From assembly GCF_003991155.1 (NCBI RefSeq), contig NZ_CP031293.1: a stretch of 64,000 nt of DNA; one strand, written 5' to 3'. Under the pieces are notes generated by a model that searched no databases, was not told the origin of the DNA, and saw nothing but the letters and a program-made list of their open reading frames with translations. A program made the translations under genes and the position numbers. Numbering within the stretch: the first letter of the stretch is position 1; every line of letters starts with the position of its first letter. Below are positions 30,319-60,483 of the stretch, in pieces. Source of the DNA: Escherichia coli (GTDB lineage: Bacteria > Pseudomonadota > Gammaproteobacteria > Enterobacterales > Enterobacteriaceae).

Positions 30319-30332
30319 CAAAGGAAACCTTC

Positions 30333-30851: not shown

Positions 30852-30887
30852 GGACGAACTATGCGATATGACGATTAAGGACGAACT

Positions 30888-33060: not shown

Positions 33061-33079
33061 TCCACAGGAGAAACGCAGT

Positions 33080-33355: not shown

Positions 33356-33378
33356 CCCCATTTGCTAAGGAGCACAGC

Positions 33379-33801: not shown

Positions 33802-33803
33802 CA

Positions 33804-34436: not shown

Positions 34437-34924
34437 ATAACATGCTGATGCAACGTATTGTTGACGAAGTGGTTTTTCGCCTTAAACAACGTGCGGGAAA
34501 AACACTCGTGCTGACTGTTTTTCAACTGCGAGACGCCAGCGTTCAAGAGATAGTTCATCAGTATGCATCATTACAAATCCGATATGTCGATCTGCCGTTG
34601 TTACGACAACTTGCGGAGAACAAAACGTCAGATCGAGCAGCAATTCAGATACACGAAGCGTTAGCCTGGGGATTGCACATTCAATTGTCGTTGCAGCGTC
34701 ATTTCCTGAACGCCATTGAATTGAAGACTCTCGCCCGTCTACCGCTAAGCTGGTGCGACGAGCAAGGGCAACCGATCTACCTTCATCGTGATCGACTTTT
34801 AAGTTATGCCGATATTGCACAGTTAAGCTCGGGAATACTGGTGTTACAGCGAAAATGTTGTGTGACCGCACTGGCTCGTGAAGCGGCAATTACCCGAAAT
34901 ATTCAGTTAATCAGGCAGGAGTAA
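34433..34924 (+). CDS. pduM: microcompartment protein PduM
   Basis: 163 aa in PduM position. Confidence 0.75.
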   Translation: MNNMLMQRIVDEVVFRLKQRAGKTLVLTVFQLRDASVQEIVHQYASLQIRYVDLPLLRQLAENKTSDRAAIQIHEALAWGLHIQLSLQRHFLNAIELKTLARLPLSWCDEQGQPIYLHRDRLLSYADIAQLSSGILVLQRKCCVTALAREAAITRNIQLIRQE

Positions 34925-34927
34925 CCT

Positions 34928-35203
34928 ATGCATCTGGCTCGAGTCACTGGCGCGGTAGTATCCACGCAAAAATCACCTTCTCTGATCGGGAAAAAACTGC
35001 TGCTGGTTCGCCGGGTCAGTGCTGACGGCGAACTGCCTCTCACGCCATTAACCGGCGACGAAGTTGCCGTTGATTCCGTCGGCGCAGGCGTTGGTGAGTT
35101 GGTACTCCTCAGCAGTGGTTCCAGCGCCAGACATGTGTTTTCCGGCCCTAACGAGGCCATCGACCTGGCAGTGGTCGGCATTGTCGATACGCTTTCGCGC
35201 TAA
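34928..35203 (+). CDS. pduN: BMC vertex protein PduN (EutN/CcmL family)
   Basis: 91 aa, [15 protein letters not shown] EutN/CcmL-like N-terminus. Confidence 0.85.
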
Positions 35204-35214
35204 GGAGCTGAAAG

Positions 35215-36222
35215 ATGGCAATTTATACCCGAACAGGTGATTCAGGAAGTACGTCTTTATTTACCGGACAGCGCGTCAGCAAAACTCATCTACGTGTCGA
35301 AACCTATGGCACGCTGGATGAACTGAACGCGACACTCAGTCTGTGTTATTGCGCCACCGCCATCGAAAGCCATCGCATCTTACTGGAAGCCATTCAACAA
35401 CAGATATTTTGGTTTAGCGCCGAACTCGCCAGTGAAAGCGAACAGCCGTCAGCGCAGCAGCGTTACATCGGTACGGAAGAAATTGCCGCGCTGGAAAACG
35501 CGATCGATAGCGCAATGAACGCCGTCCCCCCGGTTCACAGCTTCATTCTGCCTGGTCGATGTGAAGCTGCAAGCCGCATGCATTTCGCCCGCACGGTGGC
35601 TCGACGGGCTGAAAGACGTCTGGTTGAACTGACAACAGAAACCACCGTCCGGAATGTTTTGCTGCACTATATCAACCGACTTTCCGATTGCCTGTATGCC
35701 CTCGCCCGCGTGGAAGACAACGTTGCTCATCAAAACCTGATGATTCAGGAAATCACAAAACGTTATCACGAAGCCAACCACACACCAGCATTGAAGGAAC
35801 GCACAATGCCGCTCACTTTTCAGGATCTTCACCAGCTCATTCGTAGTGCGGCAATGCGCGCAGATGAACTGCATATTCCCGTTGTCATCAGCATTGTTGA
35901 TGCCAACGGAACAGAAAGTGTTACCTGGCGGATGCCTGATGCCCTGTTGGTCAGCAGTGAACTGGCACCGAAAAAAGCCTGGACCGCCGTGGCGATGAAA
36001 ACGGCAACCCACAAACTTGCTGATACCGTGCAACCCGGCGCGCCGCTTTACGGGCTCGAAAGCCATATGCAAGGCAAAGTCGTCACTTTTGGTGGCGGCT
36101 TCCCCCTCTGGCGTGACGGAAAATTGCTTGGCGGGCTTGGCATCAGCGGCGGTAGCGTTGAACAAGACATGGATATTGCCCAAAGCGCAATGGCGGCAAT
36201 TAACGTGGGAGTAAACCAATGA
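35215..36222 (+). CDS. pduO: ATP:cob(I)alamin adenosyltransferase PduO
   Basis: N-terminal MAIYTRTGDSGSTSL PduO-type adenosyltransferase signature plus C-terminal domain. Confidence 0.85.
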   Translation: MAIYTRTGDSGSTSLFTGQRVSKTHLRVETYGTLDELNATLSLCYCATAIESHRILLEAIQQQIFWFSAELASESEQPSAQQRYIGTEEIAALENAIDSAMNAVPPVHSFILPGRCEAASRMHFARTVARRAERRLVELTTETTVRNVLLHYINRLSDCLYALARVEDNVAHQNLMIQEITKRYHEANHTPALKERTMPLTFQDLHQLIRSAAMRADELHIPVVISIVDANGTESVTWRMPDALLVSSELAPKKAWTAVAMKTATHKLADTVQPGAPLYGLESHMQGKVVTFGGGFPLWRDGKLLGGLGISGGSVEQDMDIAQSAMAAINVGVNQ

Positions 36223-37604
36223 ATAACTCTGAATTAGAAACACTGATCCGCAATATTCTGCGTGAGCAGCTTGCCCCCGCTACGCAACGAGCGCAAAGAA
36301 ACGCTATTTTCCAGACTGTTGATGAAGCGGTCTGCGCAGCGCACCAGGCCTTTTTACGCTTTCAACAGTGCCCGCTTAAAACCCGTAGCGCCATTATCAG
36401 CGCCATTCGCGAAGAATTAATGCCCCGCCTTACCGAACTGGCAGAAGAAAGCGCCAGTGAAACAGGGATGGGAAATAAAGAGGATAAGTATCTAAAGAAC
36501 AAAGCAGCACTCAATAATACGCCAGGAATTGAAGATTTAACCACCACTGCACTAACCGGTGATGGTGGCATGGTTTTGTTTGAATACTCCCCGTTTGGGG
36601 TTATTGGCTCGGTCACGCCAAGCACCAACCCCACGGAAACCATCATTAACAACAGCATCAGCATGCTGGCAGCAGGTAATAGCGTCTACTTCAGTCCACA
36701 CCCGGGAGCCAAATACGTTTCGTTAAAACTGATTACCACAATCGAAGACATCGCGTTTCGCTGTAGTGGCATTCACAACCTGATCGTTACCGTATCTGAA
36801 CCGACCTTTGCCGCCACCGAACAGATGATGGCGCACCCTAAAATCAGCGTTCTGGCGATTACCGGCGGTCCGGGGATCGTCGCCATGGGAATGAAAAGTG
36901 GCAAGAAAGTGATTGGTGCCGGTGCGGGTAACCCTCCGTGCATCGTCGATGAAACGGCGGATATTGTGAAAGCCGCCGAAGATATCATCAACGGCGCTTC
37001 ATTTGATTACAACCTGCCGTGTATCGCTGAAAAAAGCCTGATTGTCGTGGCATCAGTGGCAGAGTATTTAATTCAGCAGATGCAAAGTTTTGGCGCGCTT
37101 CTTCTTAACTATGAGCAAACGGAGAAATTGCGTGCAATTTGCCTGCCAGACGGTAGCGCCAACAAAAAACTGGTTGGGAAAAGCCCATCAGCCTTGCTGG
37201 AAGCGGCAGGCCTCCCTTTGCCCGCAAAAGCGCCGCGCCTACTGATTGCTGTTGTCGACGCCAATGATAGTTGGGTTACTTGTGAACAACTGATGCCAAT
37301 GCTGCCCATTGTGAAGGTCAACGATTTTGATAGCGCTCTCGCCCTGGCGTTGAAAGTGGAAGACGGCTTGCACCACACGGCAATTATGCACTCGCAGAAC
37401 GTCTCACGGCTCAACCTTGCCGCGCGCGTTATGCAAACCTCAATCTTTGTCAAAAACGGCCCCTCTTGGGCGGGTATTGGCGTCGGCGGCGAAGGCTTTA
37501 CGACCTTTACTATTGCAACACCGACCGGAGAAGGGACAACGTCAGCACGGACTTTTGCCCGCTCACGACGCTGTGTGTTAACCAGCGGCTTTTCAATTCG
37601 CTAG
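36219..37604 (+). CDS. pduP: CoA-acylating propionaldehyde dehydrogenase PduP
   Basis: 461 aa aldehyde dehydrogenase-family sequence in PduP position. Confidence 0.85.
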   Translation: MNNSELETLIRNILREQLAPATQRAQRNAIFQTVDEAVCAAHQAFLRFQQCPLKTRSAIISAIREELMPRLTELAEESASETGMGNKEDKYLKNKAALNNTPGIEDLTTTALTGDGGMVLFEYSPFGVIGSVTPSTNPTETIINNSISMLAAGNSVYFSPHPGAKYVSLKLITTIEDIAFRCSGIHNLIVTVSEPTFAATEQMMAHPKISVLAITGGPGIVAMGMKSGKKVIGAGAGNPPCIVDETADIVKAAEDIINGASFDYNLPCIAEKSLIVVASVAEYLIQQMQSFGALLLNYEQTEKLRAICLPDGSANKKLVGKSPSALLEAAGLPLPAKAPRLLIAVVDANDSWVTCEQLMPMLPIVKVNDFDSALALALKVEDGLHHTAIMHSQNVSRLNLAARVMQTSIFVKNGPSWAGIGVGGEGFTTFTIATPTGEGTTSARTFARSRRCVLTSGFSIR

Positions 37605-37614
37605 AGAAACGGAA

Positions 37615-38727
37615 ATGAATACTTTTTCACTGCAGACGCGTTTATACAGCGGACCAGGAAGTCTCAAGGTACTTAGCCGTTTCTCTCATAGACACATCTG
37701 GATTATTTGCGATGCCTTTCTGGCACACTCACCACTCATTGACACGTTGCATCAGGCGCTGCCAGACAGTAATCGTCTCAGTATTTTTAGCGAAATAACG
37801 CCCGACCCAACTATCCAGACCGTGGTGAAAGGCATTGCGCAAATGCAGACTTTACGCCCGGATGTGGTTATCGGTTTTGGCGGCGGTTCTGCCCTGGACG
37901 CCGCAAAAGCGATTGTCTGGTTTGGTCGCCAGTGTGGCATTGAAATTGAAACCTGCGTAGCCATTCCTACCACCAGCGGTACCGGTTCCGAAGTGACCAG
38001 TGCTTGTGTCATCAGCGATCCTGAGAAAGGGATTAAATATCCCCTTTTCGATAATGCACTTTATCCGGATATCGCGATCCTTGATCCATCTCTGGTCGTC
38101 AGCGTGCCACCGGCGATAACGGCCAATACCGGGATGGATGTTTTAACCCATGCGCTTGAAGCTTATGTTTCTCCTCGCGCCAGCGACTTCACGGATGCAC
38201 TGGTCGAAAAAGCCGTGCAAATTGTTTTTCAATACCTGCCCACTGCAGTGAAGAAAGGCGATTGTCTCGCCACCCGTGGCAAAATGCATAATGCATCGAC
38301 ACTTGCAGGAATGGCCTTTAGCCAGGCTGGACTGGGATTAAACCATGCAATTGCTCATCAACTCGGCGGACAGTTTCATCTGCCACACGGCCTGGCGAAT
38401 GCGCTCCTGCTCACGGCGGTTATCCGCTTTAATGCTGGCGATCCGCGCGCTGCCAAACGCTACGCCCGGCTGGCGAAAACGTGCCATTTATGCCCGGACA
38501 ACGCCAATGACACCGCCAGCCTGAATGCACTTATTCAACATATTGAACAGCTTAAAACAACCTGTACGCTGCCGACTCTTACCAATGCGCTGAAAGAAAA
38601 AAAAGCAGAATGGTCAATACGCATACCAGATATGGTTCAGGCGGCACTGGCGGATGCAACGTTGCGTACCAACCCGCGTGCGGCTGATGCCTCCGCGATT
38701 GCAGAACTGCTCGAGGAGTTGTTATGA
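37615..38727 (+). CDS. pduQ: propanol dehydrogenase PduQ (iron-containing alcohol dehydrogenase)
   Basis: Fe-ADH motifs (GFGGGSALDAAKA; HAIAHQLGG). Confidence 0.85.
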   Translation: MNTFSLQTRLYSGPGSLKVLSRFSHRHIWIICDAFLAHSPLIDTLHQALPDSNRLSIFSEITPDPTIQTVVKGIAQMQTLRPDVVIGFGGGSALDAAKAIVWFGRQCGIEIETCVAIPTTSGTGSEVTSACVISDPEKGIKYPLFDNALYPDIAILDPSLVVSVPPAITANTGMDVLTHALEAYVSPRASDFTDALVEKAVQIVFQYLPTAVKKGDCLATRGKMHNASTLAGMAFSQAGLGLNHAIAHQLGGQFHLPHGLANALLLTAVIRFNAGDPRAAKRYARLAKTCHLCPDNANDTASLNALIQHIEQLKTTCTLPTLTNALKEKKAEWSIRIPDMVQAALADATLRTNPRAADASAIAELLEELL

Positions 38728-40067
38728 ACGTCGAGTTAACCTCCTGCGACGACCAGACCATCCGCGAGCGAGTACAGGCAGCAGGTGTCGTGGGTGCTGG
38801 CGGGGCAGGTTTTCCAACCCATATTAAGCTACAAGCGCGTGTTGACACGTTCCTGGTGAATGCGGCGGAATGCGAACCCATGTTGAAAGTGGATCAACAG
38901 TTAATGGTGCAGCAAGCCAGCCGCCTGCTTCGCGGTGTTCACTATGCGATGAAAGCCACCGGGGCCAGTAGCGGAATCATCGCGCTGAAAGAGAAATATC
39001 AACGGGCAATAAACGCACTCACACCACTGTTACCACCGGATATCCGCCTGCATATTTTGCCCGATGTTTACCCCGCAGGAGACGAAGTGCTGACCATCTG
39101 GATGGCAACTGGTCGCCGCGTTCCACCCGCTGCATTACCCGTTAGCGTCGGTGTGGTGGTCAATAATGTTCAAACCGTACTTAATATTGCCAGAGCCGTC
39201 GAGCAACAGTATCCAGTGACGCGCCGCACACTCACTATTAATGGTGCAGTGGCGAAACCAATAACGGTAACCGTCCCCATCGGCATGTCTTTCCGTGAAG
39301 TCCTGGCGCTGGCGGGCGGCGCAACAGTAGATGCTCCTGGTTTTATCAATGGCGGGCCGATGATGGGAAGTTTGATCACATCGCTCGACACACCCGTCAG
39401 CAAAACCACTGGCGGCTTGCTGGTTTTACCCAACTCTCATTCACTGATCCAACGTCGAATGCAGAATGACCGCAGCGTACTTACCGTCGCGAAAACTGTT
39501 TGTGAGCAATGCCGCTTGTGTACCGATCTCTGCCCACGTCATTTAGTCGGTCACGAACTGGCCCCCCATTTATTAGTACGTGCGGTTAACTACCAACAGC
39601 TCGCTACGCCACAACTGTTACTGACGGCGCTCACCTGTTCGGAGTGCAACGTCTGCGCCAGCGTCGCCTGTCCGGTAGGAATTTTACCAATGCGCATAAA
39701 CCGCCTGCTTAAGCAGGAATTACGCGCACAAAATCTCCGCTACGAAGGTGCCTTAAATCCTGCAGATCCCTTGGCAAATTATCGACTGGTTCCCGTAAAA
39801 CGGCTGGTAACCAGACTGGGCTTAACCCCGTGGTATCAGGATGCGCCATTGTCTGAACAGGTGCCTCAGCCCGAAAAAGTGACGTTATTGTTACGCCAGC
39901 ACATCGGTGCCAGCGCAATTGCGTGTGTACAAAAAGGCGATCGCGTCGTTCATGGGCAATGTGTAGGTCAAATTCCACACGGCACATTAGGTGCCCCCAT
40001 TCATGCCAGTATTGATGGCATGGTCAGCGATGTGACAGAAAACGCGATTACGCTTGTGAGAGGTTAA
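38724..40067 (+). CDS. pduS: cobalamin reductase PduS (Fe-S flavoprotein)
   Basis: Two Cys clusters [12 protein letters not shown] and [13 protein letters not shown]; 447 aa. Confidence 0.85.
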
Positions 40068-40069
40068 CG

Positions 40070-40624
40070 ATGTCGAAAGCGGTAGGTATTTTAGAACTTA
40101 GCAGTATCGCGAAAGGGATGGAAACCGGCGACGCCATGCTGAAAAGCGCCAACGTTGAGTTACTGGTCAGCAAAACGCTATGCCCCGGAAAATTTCTGCT
40201 GATGCTCGGTGGCGATGTGGGCGCGGTGCAACAGGCCATCAACAGCGGTGCTTCCCTTGCTGGTGAAATGCTGGTCGACAGTCTTGTCCTGCCGAATATT
40301 CATCCCAGTCTCCTTTCTGCAATCAGCGGACTGAACCAAGTTGAACAGCACCGGGCTGTCGGCGTAGTCGAAACCTGGAGTGTCGCCGCCTGCATTGACG
40401 CTGCCGATTGTGCTGTCAAAGCTGCGAATGTCATTCTTGTTCGCGTGCATATGGCTTTTGGCATTGGCGGTAAATGCTACATGGTGGTTGCTGGCGATAT
40501 TTCAGATGTTAATAACGCGGTCTCTGTCGCCAGCGAGCGTGCGGGAGAAAAAGGTTTGTTGGTCTATCGGTCGGTGATTGCCCGTCCACATGAAGCCATG
40601 TGGCGTCAGATGGTGGAGGGATAA
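40070..40624 (+). CDS. pduT: BMC shell protein PduT (tandem BMC domain)
   Basis: 184 aa tandem BMC protein. Confidence 0.85.
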
Positions 40625-40974
40625 TGACAACTCAGCACACAACTGAACGGATGATTCAGGAATATGTCCCTGGTAAGCAGGTCACGCTGGCACATGTCAT
40701 CGCCAATCCAGGGAAGGATCTGTTTAAGAAATTGGGTTTACCAGACACCGTTTCTGCTATTGGCATTCTGACGATTACCCCCAGCGAAGCATCTATCATC
40801 GCATGCGATATCGCCACAAAATCAGGCGCTGTAGAGATCGGTTTTCTTGATCGTTTTACCGGTGCCGTAGTGCTGACTGGTGATGTTTCTGCCATTGAAT
40901 ATGCACTTAGCCAGGTTACCCGTACGCTGGGTGAAATGATGCGCTTTACCACCTGCCCCATTACGCGGACCTGA
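40624..40974 (+). CDS. pduU: BMC shell protein PduU
   Basis: 116 aa from the ATG that overlaps the pduT stop (TAATG). Confidence 0.8.
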
Positions 40975-40978
40975 CGTT

Positions 40979-41422
40979 ATGCAACGTATGATGCTTATCG
41001 GCCCCAGCCAGTGCGGAAAAACGTCACTCACGCAATGTCTGCGTGGCGAAAATATCCATTATCAGAAAACGCAGGCAATCGTCTGGTCCCCGACCACCAT
41101 TGATACACCAGGCGAATACCTCGAAAACCGCAGCCTCTACAGTGCATTGTTGGTCAGTGCCTGCGAAGCAGACATTATCGCGCTGGTACTTAATGCGGAC
41201 GCACCGTGGTCACCTTTTTCGCCAGGCTTTACCTCGTCAATGAATCGCCCGGTCATTGGAGTAGTAACCAAAGCAGATTTAGCCAGTATGGAACAAATAT
41301 CTTTGGTGAAATGTTGGTTACGGGAAGCTGGAGCGCACAACGTGTTAGTAACCAGTGCGGTTAATAACAATGGAGTTACAGAAGTTTTTGCCTTGCTGCA
41401 TACAGAAGAAGGCTGTCGCTAA
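40979..41422 (+). CDS. pduV: GTPase PduV (EutP/PduV family)
   Basis: P-loop [13 protein letters not shown]; last gene of the operon here. Confidence 0.85.
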
Positions 41423-41480
41423 TTTCGATAGGTTCTCAGATGAGAATGATGACGGTGATACACAGATAAGAATCAATGAG

Positions 41481-41509
41481 CAATGAGGGTTGCCGGGCAA
41501 CCCTCATTG
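41481..41509. terminator. bidirectional intrinsic terminator between convergent pduV and yeeX
   Basis: Perfect palindrome AATGAGGGTTGCC/GGGCAACCCTCATT flanked by A/T runs. Confidence 0.6.
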
Positions 41510-43871: not shown

Positions 43872-45044
43872 TCAGGCCTTATGGTGGAAATAATCACTCA
43901 GCCGGGAAAACATGCTGCCTTCCCCGACAGATTCCAGGGTAACCAGCGGCCAGTGCGCCACCTGTTTATCACGGTCGTAAAGTTCAATTTCCCCTACCCG
44001 CTGATGGGCGCTAATTGGCGCGGTGAGTTCTTTACCATCAAGGGTATATTTGGCTTTGATATGTGGAATTTCGGCTTTCGGTAGCACCATCCAGAACTCT
44101 TGTTCCGTTCCCAGGGCGATATTTTCTTTATCGCCATACCAGATGCGTTCCGTACCAACCTTTTTCCCACGGTGCAAAATTTGCACCGTAGTAAAGTTTT
44201 GTTGCCCCCAACGCAGTAATTTTCTTGCCTCTTCCTCACGACCTTTTGCGCTGTCAGCCCCCATTACCACTGCAATGAGACGACGCTGCCCATCTACAGC
44301 CGAAGCAATGAGATTAAACCCGGCACCAGAAGTATGACCCGTTTTCAGGCCGTCAACATTCATGGTTTTATCCCACAATAACCCGTTACGGTTTTGCTGG
44401 GTGATACCGTTCCAGGTGAGGCTTTTCTCACTGTACATATGATAAAACTCGGGCTCGCCGTGGATGATAGCGCGAGAAAGCACAGCTAAATCATAAGCCG
44501 AGCTATGCTGGCCAGGTGCATCCAGACCATGCACTGTTTCAAAATGCGTATCCTTGAGATGCAGCTTCTCGGCATAGTTGTTCATCATTTCAACAAACTG
44601 CCGTTGCCCACCGGCAATATAGTCAGCCAGAGCAACACAAGCGTCATTTCCGGAATCCACAATTAAACCACGGCTTAAATCACGTACCGATACGCGATCG
44701 CCCTCTTTCAGAAACATCAGTGAAGAACCGACAAACACCGGATTATCTTTCGCCCACGCATCGCGCCCCACGGTGACAATATCGTCTGGCGTAATGCGAT
44801 GACTATCGATAGCACGATCCACGACATAGCCCGTCATCAGCTTTGTCAGGCTGGCGGGATTGCGCTGTTGATGCTCATTACCCGCGGTGAGAATCTGACC
44901 GGTGGTGTAATCCATCAATACCCAGGACCCGGCATGAATCTCTGGAGGCTGAGGTGAAAAAGGAATGTTTTCCGCCGCAAAACCAGACGATAAATTAAAA
45001 ACGAACAAAGAAGCAGCAATAATAAGACGGCGTTTCAACAGCAA
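43872..45044 (-). CDS. dacD: D-alanyl-D-alanine carboxypeptidase DacD (PBP6b)
   Basis: 390 aa with signal peptide; SxxK (ASLTKLMT), SGN and KTG motifs. Confidence 0.85.
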   Translation of the reverse strand: MLLKRRLIIAASLFVFNLSSGFAAENIPFSPQPPEIHAGSWVLMDYTTGQILTAGNEHQQRNPASLTKLMTGYVVDRAIDSHRITPDDIVTVGRDAWAKDNPVFVGSSLMFLKEGDRVSVRDLSRGLIVDSGNDACVALADYIAGGQRQFVEMMNNYAEKLHLKDTHFETVHGLDAPGQHSSAYDLAVLSRAIIHGEPEFYHMYSEKSLTWNGITQQNRNGLLWDKTMNVDGLKTGHTSGAGFNLIASAVDGQRRLIAVVMGADSAKGREEEARKLLRWGQQNFTTVQILHRGKKVGTERIWYGDKENIALGTEQEFWMVLPKAEIPHIKAKYTLDGKELTAPISAHQRVGEIELYDRDKQVAHWPLVTLESVGEGSMFSRLSDYFHHKA

Positions 45045-45246
45045 ACCCTCAGGTGTTTCAAATAGCTGTTCTTTTTACGGAAATACTTATGAACTGGCTG
45101 GAATAAAGTGCAAGAAAATGTGACTACTATCTCATTTTTATCTGACATGATCTGTTGCCACTCGCTGCCAAATTGTCGCGCTAAAGCTGATTAGCACGGT
45201 GATATTTGATACTCTGGCAGACAGCAGAAACAACGGATTTAACCTA

Positions 45247-45300
45247 ATGATGAATGACGGTAAGCAACAATCTACCTTTTTGTTTCACGATTACGCGCAA
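45247..45300 (+). pseudogene. sbcB: 5' remnant of sbcB (exonuclease I) at the prophage junction
   Basis: ATGATGAATGACGGTAAGCAACAATCTACCTTTTTGTTTCACGATTAC encodes MMNDGKQQSTFLFHDY, matching the SbcB N-terminus from memory, then diverges into ...AQHP-stop. Confidence 0.55.
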
Positions 45301-45775
45301 CACCCCTGAGAACCGCCATAAACAAGGGTTTCATGATTTGTGATTTTAGTTTGGTACGCAATTTGGTACACAACACAATTTTCACTTCAGCGGGTAGTCA
45401 TCAAACTCACCATAACGCACTTCGTTGATGATGTACGTGATCACCAAAAATATCGCATCCGGACTAGTTCCATCTTCATGCGCAGGCATATGTTCATGCC
45501 TACCTGTCTGCAAACCAGTAATAAGCCATTACAGGGTGATAGTGATGCATCAACTACGTTAAGCGCAGAGAAATGATGCAGTGGTGGGCGGATTGGCTTG
45601 ATGAAAAGGTGGAGTGATCCACCTTAACCACTATCGAAGAGCACAAAGCCTTGCAATCCAGTGCAAAGCTTTGTGTGTCTCAGTTTTGTTTCATAGGTAA
45701 TCATGCGTTCACTACGATGCAAGAATCCATACCAAATTTTATTTAAAACTCACAAATACACTAGATAAAAACAAT

Positions 45776-45794
45776 CCCGCAGTTTTCATGCGGG
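45776..45794 (-). terminator. intrinsic terminator downstream of the tailspike gene
   Basis: CCCGC-N9-GCGGG hairpin followed on the minus strand by a T-rich run. Confidence 0.5.
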
Positions 45795-45814
45795 ATATAC
45801 TGCATTTATTGCAA

Positions 45815-48292
45815 CTACATTGCCATTAATATAAACATAGCCAATTCGTCATAACGAATTCCGTAGCGTCCACCTGCTTTTTTTACAAGAATCATATTTC
45901 CTGTTTTATATTGAGAATAAATTTTCTCACCTGTATCAGGATCTGTGCTCTCTTCAGTTATCACCTCTTCATCCCATACGTCTGGCCATTCATCGTAACA
46001 CCAAAAAGCATATTGCTCAGGATTTAAACCATGCTTTCTAAGAATATCTCCTACGGTTTGAGCGCCAACTCCAAAATGATACCTTGATAACTCCAATCCT
46101 TTAAAATTAATCGACTCATTAAACCTGAACTTGCATATAATTCCCTTTATTTCCAGCGCAGCATCACGCTCTGCCTGAGTAATGTCATATATTGTTTTAA
46201 GTGTTTCATCTGATGTGCTTATAGTCCCGGATGCAGAATAAATCTGAGCCCATCTAAATGATGGTGCACCAAGAGATTTGCTGTTATCAATAATTGGTGA
46301 AAAATTACCTTTAATGGCAATATTTCCAGAGTCGCCGAATATATTAATAACTGTAGAGTCATCACCATGGTTTTTTACGCTTAAGTTTCTTGATAAAATA
46401 TTTATATCTTTGTTATACCCACTAACATTAATCCATCTTTTACCATCAATGTGATACCCGTAAATATTTCCGTTTGATTGTTCGTCAGGTGACTCTCTAA
46501 GAACAATAGCATCTACTCCAGACGACCATTGTATTTTTGTATCTGTAGGCCTCCAGTTCTTTATAATGAACGAACCATCAGTAAACTCCGTTTTTATTTG
46601 TCTATTGTCTACAAATGCGTCTCTTGGTTTAAACTCACTTGTGTTAACGCTGCTCTGAAGATCAGAAGCAAAAAATCTAAGATTTCCTGTATAACCCTGA
46701 GTCTCGGTCAGGTTATACGCAATCATAATTCCATTTTCAAACTCAGATGATGTTATTTTAACATCACGGCAATCACCAAAAATGCAATTTCCTTTATCAA
46801 ATGTTGTTTGAGCTTTGAATTTATCAAACCTTAAATTACGAACAGGGAAACCATCAACCTCTAATGCAAAGGATGCATGAAGGCCAAAGTATTCTGATGG
46901 CTTACCTGATGTATGATCAAGAGTAGTGGCTACTGTATTCTCAAAAACAGTCCCGCTAAAATTATTACCAATTGACGGAAACCTGATTACACTTATTGTA
47001 CCTTGTATTTCAGGAGAAATACCAGATAGTGTGATGTTAGTTCCATCAAATGATGCATCTGAATACGTATATACTGATTCACTGCCAGCAATTTTAAACT
47101 GTTTAACTGAAGTTATTCTCATCGACTTTTTATGTTTAAATGTCACTGAGCTTTCAGTATTACTTACAAGATCAATCTGAGGGCTATTCCTTATCGCGAT
47201 TCCTGACTGGACATAAACGTTATTAAAGTGCGTTTTTTCAGGATTTCCCTTCATTGAAAGGCTCCCGTCATTTTCTGTCAGTAGTAGTCCTTTTACCCTC
47301 CAATAGCCGACAATCTGTACGTTATCAATAACTGAATCACAGCTATCGTATACATGCAACCCTATATCCCAGTTATCACCCAATGAATAAGAATCAGGGT
47401 TATTGTATCCTTCAATACCATTTTTACTTACCATTATTCTCAGATTGCGTAACTGTGATGCCCTGTTGATACTAACAGCTACGCTCATGGCTTTTGGTGT
47501 AGCAGGAGTAACACCTACAGAATCTTCATTCGTAAACTCAGTGAACTTACAAGATATCCCTTCAACAATTTTAACCGGTCTTTCATTAGAGATGTTAAAA
47601 AAATATTTGTTTTTTTCTCCATCACCAGTAAATACAAGATGGGTTCCTTTACTCCAACTTTTTAATAATCTTTCAGGCGCTGGTCTATATGTATCCCAAT
47701 AATCAATGCCAGATCCAACCAGTGAACACCCCTCAGGAATGTTAATATTCTTCTTGATGATGCATATTCCTTCCGGAATTGTTATAACCGACCTTCCAGA
47801 GTTTAAAGCTTTAATAAAAGCATCTGAATCATCTGTTTCCCCATCTATTTTTGCTCCCCACCCTCTAACATCTCCACAATCTCTCCATCGTGCCATCTGC
47901 AACTCAGGATATTTTTTAGCGCCATCTGGATCTTCTAATTGCTGCCGTAGCTGATCGGGGTCATACTTCAGCACATTAGGAAAATAGAACTGCTGCGCAC
48001 CATATGCATCATAAACAGCCATAGAATGGCCTTGCACAGTTACAAACTTGGCTATTTGCCCGTTATATACCGGGTAACCAGCAGCGTTAATGATGATTGG
48101 TTGCGAAACAGGAACGTGAGAGCCATCTTCGTTCTCCACATAAACCTGAATCTGGTTTTCAGGATTTACAGGGTCAGTGTCAATTTTACCGATATAAATT
48201 TTGCCATTGGCAACCGCTTTAAAAGAACGTGCCATAGTGAAGAGTTGAGAAGGCATACTCACTACAACATTGGCATTTATCGAATCTGTCAT
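45815..48292 (-). CDS. tailspike protein (P22 gp9-like head-binding N-terminus, divergent receptor-binding body, C-terminal chaperone-like domain)
   Basis: First ~115 aa resemble the P22 tailspike head-binding domain ([37 protein letters not shown]...[13 protein letters not shown]...VLKYDPDQ); remainder unrelated. Confidence 0.8.
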
Positions 48293-48391
48293 TTAATTTG
48301 CTCCAGATACAAGGAATCGCCGCAGCATGGCTACGGTGAATTTTGGGCATAAAAAACCCAGCCGAAGCTGGGTCGTTGCGTTGGTTATCTG

Positions 48392-49321
48392 TCAGTAGTT
48401 ATGTACTGAAGGAGGTAATTCTTTATTCTTAAGTCTCATCCATGCGGAAAGATTCGTTGGTCCGTCTGGCTCATTGATATCAACATCTCGTGTGTGATTG
48501 ATTAAAACGTCTCTCGCCATTCCGATAACATACGAGAACTCATGACCATAGTCGTAGCATCTGCCGGAATAGTTCGATTGAATTTGTTTTAATGCCGGAT
48601 ACAGTTCGCGGAATAACGCCTGTGAGCGGTTGGCATAATCCCATAACCATACAAGGCTGTTTGCTTCTTTTGCAGAAAGCTCGTTGGTTTTCTTCTCTTG
48701 TTTGCCAATGAACTCACCTTCAAGCGGAACGCGAGCAGCAAGTGACAGTGCTTCGGTAAACTGCTCATCACTGATTTCTTTGTACGAACATCCAAAATGG
48801 GATTTCAGTGACGACCACATGGTGATCATCGCCTTCGCCTGTTTTTCTTTTGGCAGAGACTGACCGCGACTCATGACGAGTTGTTTAATGGCTTCCTGCT
48901 GTTCAGTGGTGATTTTACCCGGCAACGCCTTTTTAGCTTTGCGTGGGTTAACTACATGGCCTTTAGTCCAGTACTCGTAGAGCACATCGTCACACTCTTC
49001 CTGATACTGGATTACCTTGTCGCGGATTTCAGGGCGGACTTTGTTTGGACTGATGGTTTGCAGCCAGCCAGCAAGTTTGCGAAGTGCCAAACAAATAATC
49101 TCACGGCACTGTTCATCACCAGGAAGCTGCATTGTGATTTTCACAATGGAGGTTTTAAACCGTTGCTTTATTTTCGTAAACTGTGAAGCCCAATCCATAC
49201 CCATACCTTCAACGATAGGTTTCATTGGGGTGTACGGCTCACCGTTGTGATTGACGACATAAAGCTCTGCGCCGTGGAATGGCACGTTGATAGTAGATAC
49301 TGCTGTTGCTATACTTTTCAT
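48392..49321 (-). CDS. ant: phage antirepressor Ant
   Basis: 309 aa downstream of arc in the immI arrangement. Confidence 0.7.
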
Positions 49322-49387
49322 GTCAGTTTTTCCTCAAAATTTACTGGCGATTTAAGCCCGAGCTACTCGCAATAGCTTGGGCTTTAC

Positions 49388-49534
49388 TCATTCTGGACAA
49401 ACAATTCCATCCTTAGCTACTGACTCCTTTAGTCTCCTCAATACCTCATTACTGAACGACCGATCATCCTTTTTCGCGGACTGCTCCAAAGCCTTTTCCA
49501 GCCATTCTGGCATCCTTAATGTCTTAACTTTCAT
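49388..49534 (-). CDS. arc: Arc-like ribbon-helix-helix repressor
   Basis: MKVKTLRMPEWLEKALEQSAKKDDRSFSNEVLRRLKESV... Arc/MetJ-type fold, upstream of ant. Confidence 0.7.
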   Translation of the reverse strand: MKVKTLRMPEWLEKALEQSAKKDDRSFSNEVLRRLKESVAKDGIVCPE

Positions 49535-49646
49535 TTTTGCTCCTTTGCTCCTTTGTATGTGGTACGCATACATAGTATTTAGGTACGCATTGATAGTCAA
49601 TAGATACCTACATATCCTGTGGTAAATAATTATTCAGGATGCGCCG

Positions 49647-49898
49647 ATGTCTGATCGTAAGTACAAAAACCCTCAAGTGAATCTGAGGCTTCCTGTAGAG
49701 ATAAAGGAACGTCTTATTGAGCTGGCTGAGGCTAATTCTCGTTCATTAAATGCTGAGATGGTAGCAGCACTTGAGGCATGGACTGAAAAAAATAAACATA
49801 TTCAAGCACTAGATATTGCAACTATAGCATCGCGGTTGATAGAGCTTGAGCATGAGGTTGAGAAGTTAAAATGTATGCATGGCAACGGTGAAAAATGA
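49647..49898 (+). CDS. mnt: Mnt-like maintenance repressor (ribbon-helix-helix)
   Basis: 83 aa; NPQVNLRLPVEIKERLIELAEANSRSLNAEMVAAL; divergent from arc-ant. Confidence 0.75.
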   Translation: MSDRKYKNPQVNLRLPVEIKERLIELAEANSRSLNAEMVAALEAWTEKNKHIQALDIATIASRLIELEHEVEKLKCMHGNGEK

Positions 49899-50209
49899 AA
49901 CGCATCGCTATTTTGTTAATATTGTTCTTCTCTACAATAGTTTGCGCCAAACAAAAATCAGATAATGGCGATCTTAAAGGCCTGCAAGAACTCATGATAA
50001 CTTCGAAATTTGCTGGCATGTGCGGCACAATCAAACAAATGGCAACATTTCAAGAATCAACAAAAATGCCTGGCGGAGATGAGTTCTTACAGCGTTTTCT
50101 GACCACAGAGCAAGCAAGACTTGGAATGAATCCACAGGAGTTTCTTGAAGCATGCCAGAAGTCAATTTCAGCTTATACCAATTATTACAATCTAACTTCT
50201 GATAAATAA
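49895..50209 (+). CDS. small exported protein (signal peptide), mnt-coupled prophage moron
   Basis: ATG overlaps the mnt stop (ATGA at 49895-49898); MKRIAILLILFFSTIVCA signal peptide; 104 aa. Confidence 0.55.
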   Translation: MKRIAILLILFFSTIVCAKQKSDNGDLKGLQELMITSKFAGMCGTIKQMATFQESTKMPGGDEFLQRFLTTEQARLGMNPQEFLEACQKSISAYTNYYNLTSDK

Positions 50210-50234
50210 TAGAAAGGATTTTATAAATAACTTT

Positions 50235-50720
50235 ATGAAAAAATCACTATTAATTATCCCGCTTCTGCTGGCTGGATGCGCAAAAGTAAGTGACTACCAA
50301 GCAAGTTGCGAACAACGCTATCCAAAGCTTAGTGATATGGCTAATTGCCTTGATGCCAGCGTGAAGAACGACTCACGCATGGCATCAGCACCAACACCTA
50401 AGCTGTATGTCCTTGCTGCGAAGATGCTCGGGCAAGGTGTCGATGAAGGCAAGATAAGTGACGCACAGGCAAGACTTGAGCTTCAGAATCTTTATGTTCA
50501 ATTACAAAGCCAAGAACAAGCCCAACAAATAGCGCAAAGCCAAGCATTCCAGCAGGCTTTATTGAATTATCAGGCTGTAAACACAATGCAAGCGATCGAG
50601 CAAAAAGCGCGCCAGCCTGTTATAACTCAACCTTACCCAACACGCGTTGACACATATACAAACTGCAATTCAGGATTTGGAAACACCGTCACATGCAACA
50701 GTAGCAGCAACATTAGATAA
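50235..50720 (+). CDS. lipoprotein, prophage moron at the P22 sieA position
   Basis: MKKSLLIIPLLLAGC lipobox; Gln-rich central region; 161 aa. Confidence 0.6.
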   Translation: MKKSLLIIPLLLAGCAKVSDYQASCEQRYPKLSDMANCLDASVKNDSRMASAPTPKLYVLAAKMLGQGVDEGKISDAQARLELQNLYVQLQSQEQAQQIAQSQAFQQALLNYQAVNTMQAIEQKARQPVITQPYPTRVDTYTNCNSGFGNTVTCNSSSNIR

Positions 50721-50722
50721 AG

Positions 50723-52885
50723 CTATTCATATTCATTCATACCGCTTAACGAGGCGACAATACCAGCTCTCGACAAGCGATTGAATTCATCGCTACCAAT
50801 AGCATCGCGTATTGCTTTTACGGCGGCTTTATTTGCCATAAATCTGCGTTCCGCCGCCGCTAATGCTTCTTTACTTCCGCCAGCTCTTACTGCTTTCGTG
50901 GCTTCCTGAACTGCTTTCTCTATCGCATATCGGCCGCTACGCGTGGTGGCAATTTTAGATACAGCACCTTTTAACCCGGCGCCAACTAAAGCACCTGCGG
51001 CAGCGCCTGCAATGCCCCCTCCTGCTCCACCAACAATGGCACCTGATGTTGAGTTGGCAATTGCATTTAACACTGTTGATGTGACGTTGGATAAACCGGC
51101 ATCCAGATCGCGTAGTACATTGGCAGTTCTCCCTGTTCTTTCAATATACTGCTGAGGCTTCACTGCTGCTCTTGCAAGAGTGCCATATGCATCAGCAATT
51201 CTTCCGAGTTCTGAGGAATATCTGCTAATGGCTTTTACATTTTGTGGGGTAAGTATCCCTGCGATATGGTTAATTCCTGCTGCATCAGCTTTGCCACCAC
51301 GTACACCATGCGAGATAGCATCTTGCAACATTGATGATATAGCAGGAACACGCTCTGATTCTGGCAGCGCGCGGATCATAGAATGGAACCCAGCAGGACC
51401 ATTAAGACCTTTAGCTGACGATGATTGAAGGGATTTTACTCCATTCGTAATCAGTGCATCTGTTGCCAAATCACGCCCGAAAACAGACTCTGCACTCTCT
51501 TGTGCTGATAACCTCGCTTTAGACAGATCATTAGCTTTCTGCCAGTCATCAAGAAATCCGCCGTTTTCCGCCATTGTGCGCATATCATCAGTAATTGCCC
51601 GGCGTATTTCCCCTGCTCTCCTTGCCGCATTTGCCTCTCCGCTACGCTTATATTTTTGCTCCGCATCAGCAAATTTCGCTCTCCATGCTTTCATGCCATC
51701 AAATGTTACCCCACCTTGATTGTTTGCCTGAACAAACTGTTTCATTTCAGGAGTAAGCGGTATGCCAGCAGATCGCTCTGCCTGAATAACGGCATTACCA
51801 TTTAGCATTCTTGCTTTTTGATTTGGCATTGTTGACCGCACGTCATCCCATGCCGCGCGCTCGGCATCCTTCATCTGATCAAGATTTTGAAGAATCCTTT
51901 GTTTTATAGCCGCACTTTTTTCTGATGCCGTTCCAGATGCGGCCCCAAATTCATCAAGGTTTCGACTTAACTTTGATGATATTTCGTTAAATGCTGCCTG
52001 ATGGGCGTCCTGAACAATTCCTGGTGTTGATGCCAATGCGCCTTCGGCTTGTGCAATTCCACGACTTCCAGATCGCATTCCTGGTGTTAATGCGTTTATA
52101 TCAATTCCAGCAGACTCAGCCGCTTTTGCTACATCTTCGGACACATTAGCGGCCTGACTGGCAATTGACTGACGCCCAGCACCTGACTTTGCCATCCTGG
52201 AAACATCATTAGCAGAATTCAGTGCTGCACCACCAAGAGCCTGTGAAACCCTTGGCGCAATAACGCGCCCGACACCTGAAAGAACGCCTTGAGCACCAAT
52301 ATTGATACCACCGTTAATGGCAGCATTTTGTGCAAAGTCGCCCTCCTGATTTGCAGCATCAGCAAGAGAACCTGCAATCATGTTTCCTGCGGAACCGATA
52401 TCTCCAGCGAGCTTTGCTGGCGCTCCAGCAGCTTTTGCCGCTGTGCCAATTGGCAGGAGATACCCACCAATTGTTTCACCGGCTTGCGCATAAGGGTCTG
52501 TCGGTCGATCGACTGGACGATAGACATCATCCAAAACCTTTGGGCCACCAAGCCCCTGGCTGATTGCATTAATCAGACTTGCGCCACCCTGCAATACGTC
52601 AAATGGTATGTTTACCAGACCACGACCAGCCTGTTCTGCAATTTGCCCTGCACTTTGACCACCTGTGAGCCAATCACCAGCTTGTTGCATCAATGATGGT
52701 TCTTCTTTCTGCTGCTGTGGCGGAGGGTATGCTGCATAAAACTGATCTCTTGCTTCAGCCCATTTGTCACCAGCCTTAGGGGCAACAACCTCATCAAAAT
52801 ATTGCGCTTGAGCCTGTGCTTTCTGTTCTTCAGTTAACGCCTGATACTGTGGAGAAGCGATAACATCTTTCCATGCTTTAGCCAT
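50723..52885 (-). CDS. ejection (injection) protein, P22 gp16-like
   Basis: 720 aa, Gly/Ala-rich; gene order after gp20. Confidence 0.65.
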
Positions 52886-54225
52886 TAATCACCCCATAAA
52901 GACGAGAAACCGGAATTATTGCTGTCGCTTCCTGATTTTCGCTCACTAACATATGTGTCATAACCTGATGAACTATATCCCATTGATTCAGCCTCCCTTG
53001 CTGCAACCTTTTGAAATACAGAATATTGCGATCGGATTTCAGATAACTGTTTTCTGACGACCTCTTCAGGCTGTGTTATATCGAGTTTCGCGATCAGGTT
53101 TTCCAGTTTTTGGCCTTCAGCATTGGAGAGGCTACCCATACCTCGCATAGTCTGCACGTTCTGGACAAACGCACCCGACTTTAATTCTTCTATCGCATTA
53201 CGGTTTGCAAGCCCTTCAGCACTTGTGAAGCCATCTATATTTCTTCCTTCGAAGCGACCGATACCTTCAAGCTCCTTCTTACCAAGCAAAGAATCAATTT
53301 TCTCTATCCCTCGCTCACCAGTAATCAACGCATTGTTGTAATTATTGTTGCCATCAAGCCATCTCTTAGCCTGAGACATTCTGGCTGACGTTGCAGCTTT
53401 ACCGGTTAGAGGATCAATTCCCGTCGCTGCTATCTGTGAGTTAAGAGACAAAACATCCATATCCTGAAGTTGTCCTGCTCTTTCAAGGGCCGCCTGTGAC
53501 TGCTTAAACACATACTTGTCGTGATTCAGTCTTGCCATTTGAGCCTTATAGGAAAGATCCTGCCCCCTAATAGCCCTCGCATTCGTCATGTCATTATTGC
53601 GAATGGTTTCGTTAATTCTTTGCTGTTCCTGCTGGCGACCAACCATCTTGTCCTGAACATTGAAGTAATCAATCGGACCAAGAGCAGCCATTCCGAGGTG
53701 ATCAACAAACTCACCAAATCCTGAAGGATTCTGCTGATACATCTGAGCAACGTTGTTAGGGTCAACGCCGACGCGCGCCAGTTCCTTGGCGTTGTTTTGC
53801 AGCCATGATTGCATTGCTTCTGGAGACGAGGCCGCAAGGCGTGCGCCAGCTGCTAAGGTGCCGATAGAATTACGCTGCTCTTCATCAATGAATCCCATGC
53901 CTTTACGAACGGATTCAATCTGGTCTGGATATTGAGTAGCCAACTGACGCAAAGCACCGCGATCACCAGACGCATAAGCATTAGCGTATGCCTGCTGAAA
54001 TTCTTTCTGCCGCTGAGCCTGCTTTTCCTGCTGAAACACCCCCGCAATACCTGAAAGTCCTTGCAAAGCAGTCAGCCCAACATTGTTAGCGCCTGAACGC
54101 TCAATATCATTGTTCTGCCTGATAAGCTGAAGCGTATTGCCGATGTCATTTACGCTCGGAGCGTTTGAGTTGACGCCGCCGATACCAGCCAACAATCCGC
54201 CATTTGATCCTTGCCAAGTAGCCAT
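52885..54225 (-). CDS. ejection protein, P22 gp20-like
   Basis: 446 aa in gp20 position. Confidence 0.65.
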
Positions 54226-54234
54226 GATTACCCC

Positions 54235-54927
54235 TTAAAACAACGAACCAAGCAATCCGATACCAGCACCAATGCCAGCGCCCCAAGGTGTTGATGTTCC
54301 CAAAAGGCTGGCAAGACCTGCACCGGCAATCGCACCGGACGTTCCGCCGCTAATTGCTGTCTGAAGACTTGATGGTTTATTGGCATTAGCAGCGGCAAGT
54401 GCTGCGCTTTGCTGTGCAATGCTGCTCATGTTGTTGGCGTACGTCTGCCCGGCGTTTGCCTGACCTTGCAGAGCACCAAGCCCAACGTTTGCCAGATTGT
54501 TGTAATTGCTCATCTGGTTTGATAACCAAGACTGACCGAGAGTCGGCGCGATCGTAGCCAGTTGATTGCTTGTGGCTGTCGAACCAAGTCCGCCAGTCGC
54601 CTCCGCAGCAGCAAGACTCTGGTAACGAGCCTGACCTGCAAGGTCTTTATACTGCTGAGAATTGTAATACTGATTAAGTGCCTTCCCCTGACCTTCTAAA
54701 CTGGAAAGATTCTGAAGCTGGTTAACATACTGCTCCGCAAGCGGCGTGAACGGAGCAAGGTTTTTCATGATCGTCTGCCACTGCTGATTTTGCAGGTCTG
54801 CGGCATACTTCTGGGCTTCTGCTGCATACTTTGCGCTTTTATCAGAACTGCCACCTTTCCCGCCTTTTTCAGGGCAATAAGGTTCCTCGCCGCGCAGTTT
54901 TCTGCCCAGCTTAAATGCATATAACAT
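54235..54927 (-). CDS. ejection protein, P22 gp7-like
   Basis: 230 aa in gp7 position. Confidence 0.65.
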   Translation of the reverse strand: MLYAFKLGRKLRGEEPYCPEKGGKGGSSDKSAKYAAEAQKYAADLQNQQWQTIMKNLAPFTPLAEQYVNQLQNLSSLEGQGKALNQYYNSQQYKDLAGQARYQSLAAAEATGGLGSTATSNQLATIAPTLGQSWLSNQMSNYNNLANVGLGALQGQANAGQTYANNMSSIAQQSAALAAANANKPSSLQTAISGGTSGAIAGAGLASLLGTSTPWGAGIGAGIGLLGSLF

Positions 54928-54929
54928 GG

Positions 54930-55385
54930 CTATCTCCCGTGATTCAGGAAGTCGATTAGTTCTTCGCGTGTGGCGCTGTAAAACGTCACGTCATCCACGC
55001 CTTTGAAGTATTTCTTGATGGTTCCTACACGCTTAAGGCCAATCATTGCGCAGTACATCTGACCGTGGCGGAATTTGCGCGCAGCGAACGATGTGACACA
55101 CTGAACAGTGGTGTTAGTCAGAATGTATCGCCAGAACGCCAGCCCGATTTCCTTGCTGAAGCCGCGAACCTCTGGCAGGTACATGGCGTGGCAATCGAAT
55201 GTCAGCGGCTGAATCTCCTGATAGTAAACAATGCCGCCGAACTGCCCGTGCACGTTAACTTCAAAGTAACGGCAATCAGGTTTGTAGCCGTATTCATCAC
55301 CGTTATTGCTCCCGGCGATAATGTCAGGGTGATTTCCGACTGCTTCTATCAGGTCGATGTTTCGCGTTGGTTTGAATGTAATCAT
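54930..55385 (-). CDS. P22 gp14-like protein
   Basis: 151 aa between gp7 and gp26 homologs. Confidence 0.55.
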   Translation of the reverse strand: MITFKPTRNIDLIEAVGNHPDIIAGSNNGDEYGYKPDCRYFEVNVHGQFGGIVYYQEIQPLTFDCHAMYLPEVRGFSKEIGLAFWRYILTNTTVQCVTSFAARKFRHGQMYCAMIGLKRVGTIKKYFKGVDDVTFYSATREELIDFLNHGR

Positions 55386-56086
55386 CAGTCAATCAGCCCA
55401 TGTAATCTAAGTGCTGTTTCAAGCGCCAGAATACGCTGCCGCGCCTGCTGCAAACCTGTAGCGAGAGCCGCGACTTCGGATTGCGTGTACGTAGTGCCGA
55501 CAGTGTATGACTGGTTAGCGTTGAATGAGCCAAGAAGTGGCGTACCTGTGGCTGCAGTCCATCCGGTCTGCCTTGCTCCAACGACCTGAATTCCATCAAC
55601 TGAATATGATGTTTTTACATCCAGCGGTGACGCAAGAGACTGCGATTCGGTTACGGTTTTCGATACGTAATCACTCTTAATGCCAGAGACATCGTTTTCT
55701 ACGTCATTCAGTCTTTGGTCAACAGTGACCAGATGCGCCTGAATATCGATAACCTCATCCAGCAAGTAATCAACATCGCTACGCAGTACGACTATCTTCC
55801 CTTCGGCAGTTGTTAACCTGACCTCAAGGAGATTTATCGCTTTTGTGTTTGCGGTGATTCTTGCGTCGTGATCAGCCAGTTCGACATCCTGTTCATCGTT
55901 TTTCACCTGAGCATCGTAAGCGCCCTGACCAGCCTGATTTGCCTTCCCGGCAATTGCGCCGACATCAGCCCCCTGATTAATGACATACAGCAGGTAAGAC
56001 TGGCTGAAGATATTGCGTGGAAGGATTGATGTATCGAGCCGCGTCGCCTGCACAATAACAGGAGTGTTGAGATTCGAATCCGCCAT
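55385..56086 (-). CDS. tail needle protein, P22 gp26-like
   Basis: 233 aa; [36 protein letters not shown]...[18 protein letters not shown] closely matches P22 gp26 from memory. Confidence 0.85.
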
Positions 56087-57504
56087 TACTCAATCCTTAT
56101 CTGAGCGCCAGAAAGAGTTACAGGTGACTTCGTGATAACGCGCAATTTGAAGCCGACATTTTTCCTGATGCGCCCTACTCTCTTCCACAAAACACGCTTG
56201 TCGTAAACGAACGGTTCATTCTGCTCAATCATCTGCTCACGACCGTAATTGATGCCATCAGTGGTTGCCGAGAGGAACAGGCGGTCGGCGTACTGAGCGA
56301 CACCCGTCGATGATTCCACCTCCAGATCAAAGCATCTGGCGTTATCCGCTTTGAACAACGGAGTAAACAGCAGGTGTTCCTGTTGCTTGTCGTACTGGCT
56401 GCTGATATCGAATTGCAATTTCCCGGTCACGGACTCCAGCTTATCGCCGCACGTTATCTGATTGCCTTCGTAAATGAAGTCGATAGCGCGGTACACATCG
56501 TCATACAGGCCTGTTTTCAGTACACACCATTGCGGACCATTGGCGCTTGAAGATGCGTCGTACACGAGAACATGGCGCGGAAGATGGATAATCAGCAGCT
56601 CATGCGCATCAAATCGCAGAGACTCCATCACACCATCAGCCAGTTCATCAGCAGTGTAGGAGCGGAGGATTTTCTCAATGCTCGCGCTGGCGATTGGTGA
56701 TACCTGACCGGAGCCGATGATATATACAGACGGCGCACCTGTTGCCGGATTGCTGATGAACGCATAAGAATCAGCGAATGGCGTTTTGCAGTAAGTCCCG
56801 GCGATGCCTTTTTGCACCATCAGTGATGGCTGTGCGACATACAAAGCGGCACCAACGGTAGTTGATCCTGTCAGGGAGAAATATTCAATAGTCGATGAAC
56901 CAAAGCATACGATGAAGTCTCGCCATGTTCCGATGCCGATGATGCCGTCAGGCTGCGATTCTGCGCGATATTGTGCGCTGTAGCGGTCAGGGTGCGATTC
57001 GTCTTCAAGGTCAGTGATAAACCATGAATCAGTACCGTCTTTTGACCACGCATAACGCCCACGCAAGCGCGTAATGTCGCGAACAGAACCTAACTCATAC
57101 TGCGTGAATCCGCTGTCCGTAGGCCAGTTTGAGACGGTTTTAACCGTGCCATCATAGCGATACTCGACCAGTTGACCATTAACGCCTACCGCCTGTGATG
57201 TCCGACCATGCGCCATTGATACGCGACCACTTCCGGCAACATCACCGACTTCACTTTCGCCTTTGTACAGCTTGCCACCACACACACGATAAACAGCATT
57301 CTGCGCCATGTTGTACTCGACACCGCGAGATACACCGTTCACATCAGAACGTTTTGCAATGCCCGGGAATGAGCGAAGATATCCGCTGCTGTTCAGGATT
57401 TCTTTGGGTGTAGCCAACATATTCACTGGCAGATAGTCGATATAGTCGGCATTTCGGAAGTCTTTGCCGACACCTTTCATAAGCGGAAGTTGCTGAATCG
57501 GCAT
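56086..57504 (-). CDS. tail accessory protein, P22 gp10-like
   Basis: 472 aa in gp10 position. Confidence 0.7.
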
Positions 57505-58219: not shown

Positions 58220-58263
58220 GCTTGTCTCCAGATAAAAACGGGAGCCGAAGCTCCCTCTGGTTA

Positions 58264-60470: not shown

Positions 60471-60483
60471 GATTAACTCTCTC

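Follow-up and report, generated by a model that had tools for sequence, protein, structure and literature searches.

A P22-like prophage junction at the 2851-type attachment site in the 5' end of sbcB in Escherichia coli

Results

The 64,000-nucleotide stretch of Escherichia coli DNA analysed here (the window) carries the chromosomal neighbours of sbcB, dacD, sbmC, yeeA and tmaR/yeeX, in the same gene order as K-12. An untouched host flank is formed by dacD (43872–45044, minus strand, from the open reading frame list), which is annotated at the same place (1167 nt) in K-12 and in the E. coli genomes DP051, Z30 and LR-60. It is followed by the native dacD-sbcB intergenic region (45045–45246), the host arm of the junction, which was recognised as part of the K-12 match over 45045–45295 and includes whatever drives sbcB in the unoccupied chromosome.

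Next to this arm lies an orphaned sbcB start (45247–45309, plus strand). The exonuclease I N-terminus that a preliminary description had read on this strand is present at 45247–45294, where ATGATGAATGACGGTAAGCAACAATCTACCTTTTTGTTTCACGATTAC corresponds to sbcB codons 1–16 (MMNDGKQQSTFLFHDY), and the frame then diverges and stops as that description had claimed: ATGATGAATGACGGTAAGCAACAATCTACCTTTTTGTTTCACGATTAC runs into GCGCAACACCCCTGA (GCG CAA CAC CCC TGA), which adds four phage-derived codons (AQHP) and a TGA stop at 45307–45309. A full-length exonuclease I coding sequence was not found in the window, where these 16 codons, AQHP and the stop are what remains. Sequence comparison showed K-12 sbcB to be identical to the first 49 bases of the orphaned start, and the alignment to an unoccupied sbcB locus that had been proposed as a check matched 246 of 251 bases between window positions 45045–45295 and the K-12 MG1655 dacD-sbcB spacer and sbcB start. 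Directly past base 45295 the identity falls to 20 of 100 bases, the level of unrelated DNA. Because the match is near complete before this base and at background beyond it, the similarity to sbcB is real and the breakpoint lies right after 45295.

Elsewhere in the window, collinearity with E. coli LR-60 and open reading frames at 38724–41422 place a propanediol-utilisation (pdu) microcompartment operon directly beyond tmaR/yeeX, at about 22000–41500; the frames seen in 38724–41422 resemble PduS, PduT, PduU and PduV. In LR-60 the pdu operon is followed by pocR and cobUST, and K-12 carries the CP4-44 cryptic prophage at this position.

We compared the window junction with K-12 attB, the integrase-side junction of DP051, and the attP of the free phages Sf101, mEp234, E212 and APC_JM3.2. 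The sole mismatch-free stretch common to K-12 attB, both junctions and free-phage attP is the 13-base core TTTCACGATTACG (45283–45295), which covers sbcB codons 13–16 and takes in the first nucleotide of codon 17 (F-H-D-Y-E). Left of the core the window equals attB, right of it attP, and the exact core match coincides with the end of K-12 similarity. These comparisons establish the anatomy of the junction as a clean attB-left, core, attP-right hybrid, and they bear out the earlier claim of integration in the 5' end of sbcB, with codons 1–16 and the native spacer to dacD still in place. The earlier placement of the core within codons 1–16 was essentially right, since the core extends one base into codon 17 and is identical to the published Sf101/2851 core. 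The attP of Sf101 was published as CGTAATCGTGAAA, identical to that of the Stx2c phage 2851 (Jakhetia et al. 2014, PMC4159516); CGTAATCGTGAAA is the reverse complement of TTTCACGATTACG, and for both phages integration at the 5' end of sbcB has been reported (PMC4159516). The same 13 bases are annotated as an insertion duplication in the record of phage 1717 and labelled 'attP type 2851' in that of mEp234. Asp15 and Glu17 of exonuclease I belong to a conserved catalytic motif, and the phage target is therefore among the least variable parts of sbcB.

The phage arm of the junction, the tailspike-side arm of attP, occupies 45296–45814 and was assigned by its match to free-phage attP. Over the 60 bases past the core it differs at one position from the attP of APC_JM3.2 and at up to three from those of mEp234 and E212; Sf101 is more diverged. 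Longer stretches are 87–94% identical to the four free phages, and the phage-side flank thus matches the corresponding arm of attP in phages with a 2851/Sf101-type module. Within this arm, two direct repeats, TTGGTACGC and TTGGTACAC, lie 12 bases apart at 45351–45371 (plus strand) and share the motif TTGGTACRC. The motif has three matches in the 64-kb window, of which these are two, against 0.75 expected, a modest excess that was reached in 6 of 100 shuffles; three more copies in the same orientation occur in the integrase-side arm of DP051. As the integrase has an arm-binding domain, these repeats are plausible arm-type sites, to which it would be predicted to bind.

The remainder of the arm holds decayed cargo. 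A humD/umuD-like S24 peptidase gene (45382–45566, minus strand) was identified from pseudogene annotation in relatives: in M160133 and EC11 the NCBI pipeline calls the equivalent stretch a frameshifted, N-terminally truncated pseudogene, 'S24 family peptidase' or 'HumD family', and APC_JM3.2 has an intact 98-residue version at this position (Peptidase_S24, E = 3.8e-6). An open reading frame of 78 aa at 45340–45576 (plus strand), which corresponds in position to orf17 of Sf101, was rejected as a gene; it has no PHROG match and is antisense to the humD remnant. Just past the tailspike gene, an intrinsic-terminator-like hairpin with a T run (45774–45796, minus strand) is formed by an 8-pair stem, ATCCCGCATGAAAACTGCGGGAT then TGTTTTTATC. 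An Rfam scan of 44900–45950 returned a single chance-level match, to an archaeal snoRNA, which scored 16 bits where the threshold is 45.

The tailspike gene itself (45815–48292, minus strand, 825 aa) combines a P22-type head-binding N-terminus (Pfam Head_binding, residues 4–114, E = 1.2e-65) with a different receptor-binding body, and matches phrog_1171, 'tail spike protein', at E = 2e-203. It is the neighbour that had been named in the preliminary description, at 519 rather than 520 bases from the breakpoint. The rest of the visible prophage (48392–64000, minus strand) follows the P22 gene order, as judged from open reading frame sizes, PHROG assignments and collinearity with the Z30 prophage: it contains Ant, two Arc-like regulators, three ejection proteins, the tail needle, a gp10-like head closure protein, coat, scaffold, portal and the start of the large terminase gene. 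Ten proteins have PHROG matches with E values from 1e-97 to 1e-249, and the Arc-like regulators were also identified. The late order of P22 (terminase, portal, scaffold, coat, gp4, gp10, needle, gp14, three ejection proteins, the Ant/Arc immunity region and tailspike) is thereby recovered over the visible part; the terminase gene is cut by the window edge, with the early region and the lysis genes beyond. The description of the prophage as P22-like accordingly stands.

The body of the tailspike is unusual among sequenced phages. The sole near-identical phage record is the partial Phi05_1387 B, at 98.5% over half of the query, and weak, sub-threshold matches of the C-terminus to endosialidase chaperone (Peptidase_S74) and endosialidase tailspike domains hint at a self-cleaving C-terminal chaperone. 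Two open reading frames lie on the opposite strand (49895–50209 and 50235–50720, plus strand), in the gap that separates the Ant/Arc immunity region from the ejection-protein genes. They match the unknown-function families phrog_19844 and phrog_6067, the former frame has a signal-peptide-like start, and both look like cargo genes that may be expressed from the prophage.

Neither a second copy of the core nor later sbcB sequence is present in the 64-kb window, and a direct-repeat search of 45000–64000 returned short chance repeats only. Coverage of the final 25 kb of the window by complete E. coli genomes in the collection reaches 81% at most; for this reason we read the far end from other lysogens. 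DP051 is the closest lysogen found, 99.7% identical over 45045–45814, and has a shorter, deleted P22-like prophage at sbcB. Z30 carries a P22-like prophage of about 41 kb between dacD and sbcB, and SW4848 a different prophage with the same integrase module. At the far end of all three lie an AlpA-like regulator, a 392-residue tyrosine integrase (Pfam Arm-DNA-bind_3 and Phage_integrase domains), a phage spacer of about 180 bases and then sbcB, which is annotated as complete (1425 nt) in each, with no pseudogene call in any of the three. The resumption of sbcB at the far prophage end, which the preliminary description had predicted, thus holds in these three relatives, in all of which the integrase gene points away from the junction. 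The integrase and adjoining arm of DP051 are 98–99% identical to those of 2851, 1717, Sf101, mEp234, HK544, HK140, E212 and APC_JM3.2. Among 5426 complete E. coli genomes, the integrase-side junction occurs in 581 (about 11%, at a coverage of at least 80%) and the tailspike-side junction of the window in 271.

Related prophages at sbcB decay in different ways. In DP051 (35523–37170) the antiterminator gene leads directly to a gp14-like gene, with the lysis, terminase and head genes lost; in Z30 (27644–31108) an IS3-family element sits inside the portal gene. The integrase gene lies about 180 bases from the phage-supplied, or surrogate, sbcB start, and converges on and overlaps the AlpA-like gene (DP051 17796–19146; mEp234 1355–2705).

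The integrase-side junction of the lysogens reads ATG ACA GAC ACA GAT AAG CAA CCT ACC TTC CTC, then the core, then native sbcB. The far-end sbcB of the three other lysogens is a complete frame of 474 codons, in which the phage arm provides the start codon and the first 12 codons (MTDTDKQPTFL...). As the phage supplies an in-frame start, the reading frame is rebuilt and not left truncated. The rebuilt protein begins MTDTDKQPTFLFHDYETFG..., the native one MMNDGKQQSTFLFHDYETFG..., and the DP051 hybrid and solved exonuclease I structures align over their whole length (E = 0). Every free phage examined carries this ATG and the codons in frame with it in its attP, the variation among them being one synonymous change and one D-to-G change (the latter in Sf101). 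This conservation is no proof of selection, since the compared arms are themselves about 98–99% identical.

The surrogate codons are nearer to the native sbcB starts of Buttiauxella and Mixta than to that of E. coli. A degenerate-codon scan of one genome per species found no genome encoding the exact surrogate N-terminus; the shorter peptide KQPTFLFHDYETFG is encoded in the sbcB of five Erwiniaceae or Buttiauxella genomes (Mixta, Winslowiella, Buttiauxella), and by manual count the Buttiauxella DNA agrees with the phage arm at 32 of 34 bases. This resemblance suggests that the phage arm may be an sbcB start captured from another enterobacterial host. In Mixta spp., Winslowiella arboricola and Buttiauxella sp. 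B2, sbcB appears to start with GTG or TTG, followed by xxxxKQPTFLFHDY; the start in these genomes would be one residue shorter than in E. coli, the length class of the phage surrogate start.

Lambda and P22 read int towards att. The 2851-type module differs from this layout in that int is read away from the att site, and therefore the short arm must hold the integrase promoter together with any promoter for sbcB. A simple sigma-70 consensus scan found no promoter in the 181 bases of arm that separate the ATG of the integrase from the surrogate ATG, and none in the native sbcB upstream region. Because the native region also gave none, the scan says little about expression of the rebuilt gene, which is presumably transcribed from the phage arm of about 180 bases.

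Discussion

With a probability of about 90%, the window contains the tailspike-side junction of a P22-like prophage at the known 2851-type sbcB site, with sbcB rebuilt at the far end. In the convention of the Sf101 paper this junction is attR; the prophage is P22-like, of Lederbergvirus type. Site-specific recombination would have placed it in the 2851-type attachment site in the 5' end of sbcB, through a tyrosine integrase with an arm-binding domain that is probably encoded at the other prophage end, beyond the window, and would exchange strands inside TTTCACGATTACG, the sequence common to phage attP and sbcB codons 13–17. Integration on this model parts the native promoter region and first 16 codons of sbcB from the rest of the gene. 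The parted codons stay beside dacD, joined to phage DNA as a dead-end frame of 20 codons, and the integrase-side arm would bring an ATG and 12 sbcB-like codons in frame with the core, such that the far junction rebuilds a 474-codon exonuclease I gene. We infer that the far end of the prophage in the studied strain is like that of the related lysogens: it would consist of early genes, an AlpA-like excisionase, the integrase, about 180 bases, ATGACAGACACAGATAA(A/G)CAACCTACCTTCCTC, the core and the remaining sbcB.

Other readings of the locus differ widely in how well they fare. If the likeness to the exonuclease I N-terminus were coincidental, the prophage would simply be intergenic; we found no support for this, and the alignment of 246 of 251 K-12 bases over the spacer and sbcB start, with dacD, sbmC, yeeA and tmaR in order alongside, refutes it and leaves it a negligible chance. 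The prophage might instead be rearranged or truncated, its far end no longer at sbcB and the 16-codon fragment a deletion scar rather than half of an attL/attR pair. The far end does lie beyond the window, relatives do decay (the lysis-to-head region is gone from DP051, and the portal gene of Z30 contains an IS3 element), and insertion-sequence-mediated disruption at the sbcB locus has been described in Shigella (PMC4159516). Yet the visible 18.7 kb form an uninterrupted P22-type late region of full-length genes, the junction is base-exact at the core, and sbcB is found at the far end in all three examined lysogens with the integrase module, which makes rearrangement improbable.

More weight is due to the idea that integration knocks out or silences sbcB, the frame being rebuilt but the native promoter lost and the arm lacking an effective promoter or ribosome-binding site. 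The native upstream region would be left at the dacD side, some 40 kb off, a consensus promoter was not found in the 181-base arm, and the integrase is divergent from sbcB, which leaves sbcB without read-through from any phage gene in the repressed prophage; the prophages also carry erf and an anti-RecBCD gene. With sbcB silenced, lysogens would have the phenotype of exonuclease I mutants, to the possible benefit of the phage Erf and anti-RecBCD recombination functions. Against this, the phage provides an ATG and 12 in-frame codons with the conserved TFLFHDY stretch kept exactly, none of the three examined lysogens has sbcB annotated as a pseudogene, and the promoter scan was equally blank for the native region, which makes its silence uninformative. 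We consider silencing a possibility on the unlikely side. In a further proposal, compatible with the rebuilt frame, the captured start from another enterobacterial lineage came with its own promoter, and the exonuclease I of a lysogen is made from phage-supplied signals; this we put forward tentatively and with some doubt. If true, it would place a host DNA-repair nuclease under the control of a phage arm, possibly tied to the divergent integrase promoter or, alternatively, to read-through from the early-left operon on induction.

Returning to the integrated P22-like prophage with its far-end sbcB, its closest described counterparts among the phages compared include Sf101 (Lederbergvirus; PMC4159516), which has a P22/Sf6-type genome layout like that of the window prophage. 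Sf101 and the DP051 prophage, whose junction is also that of the window, have an integrase and adjoining arm that agree at 98.7%, and the surrogate sbcB start recurs in the Sf101 attP with a single amino-acid difference. The two phages differ in cargo and tailspike: Sf101 has the O-antigen acetylase gene oacB between its tailspike gene and attP, where the window prophage has the decayed humD-like remnant, and only the N-terminal ~320 bases of the two tailspike genes match, at 87%, the receptor-binding part being different. Cargo between attP and the tail genes likewise varies in other phages: mEp234 has a side tail fibre gene there, and APC_JM3.2 an intact PolV-subunit-like gene.

The same integration module occurs in phages of other kinds. 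The Stx2c phage 2851, the Stx2-converting phage 1717 and other O157 Stx phages have integrases about 99% identical, the same core and the same integrase-side hybrid sbcB start. These Stx phages are lambdoid, with non-P22 virions; their records are 55–65 kb long and carry stx, as against about 38–41 kb for the compared P22-like phages, and they have only the integration module in common with the window prophage. The lambdoid phages mEp234 and HK544 have 'attP type 2851' annotated in their records, and HK140 was also compared. The free attP of mEp234, E212 and APC_JM3.2 equals, almost base for base, the integrase-side arm, the core and the window arm placed end to end. Phage Louie of the Bas collection was rejected as an attP source; it has another integrase arrangement and is without the 13-base core.

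Phage 21 and e14, in icd, and many phages at tRNA 3' ends carry a substitute end of their target gene (Campbell's reviews). The sbcB phages resemble these in that attP holds a diverged part of the target gene and integration leaves a complete gene, and differ from them in that the icd and tRNA phages replace the 3' end and the sbcB phages the 5' end. With the 5' end replaced, the phage must therefore supply the start codon together with the transcription and translation signals.

Both the integration site and the class of phage that uses it have been described before. The sbcB attachment site was reportedly first described by Strauch et al. in 2008, and surveys of Stx prophages in E. coli O157 count sbcB among their four standard sites. 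No description of the surrogate sbcB start was found in the literature surveyed, which did not cover Strauch et al. 2008. The phage-supplied start is a modest refinement and not a new kind of system, and with sbcB a standard prophage site in E. coli and Shigella, the finding has little significance beyond correct annotation. The 20-codon sbcB start next to dacD ought not to be annotated as a gene, and it is no evidence for loss of exonuclease I, since the examined lysogens have a full-length frame at the other prophage end. Surveys of this locus sometimes use the word 'disruption' for an occupied site; the reading frame there is instead rebuilt, with a start that the phage supplies.
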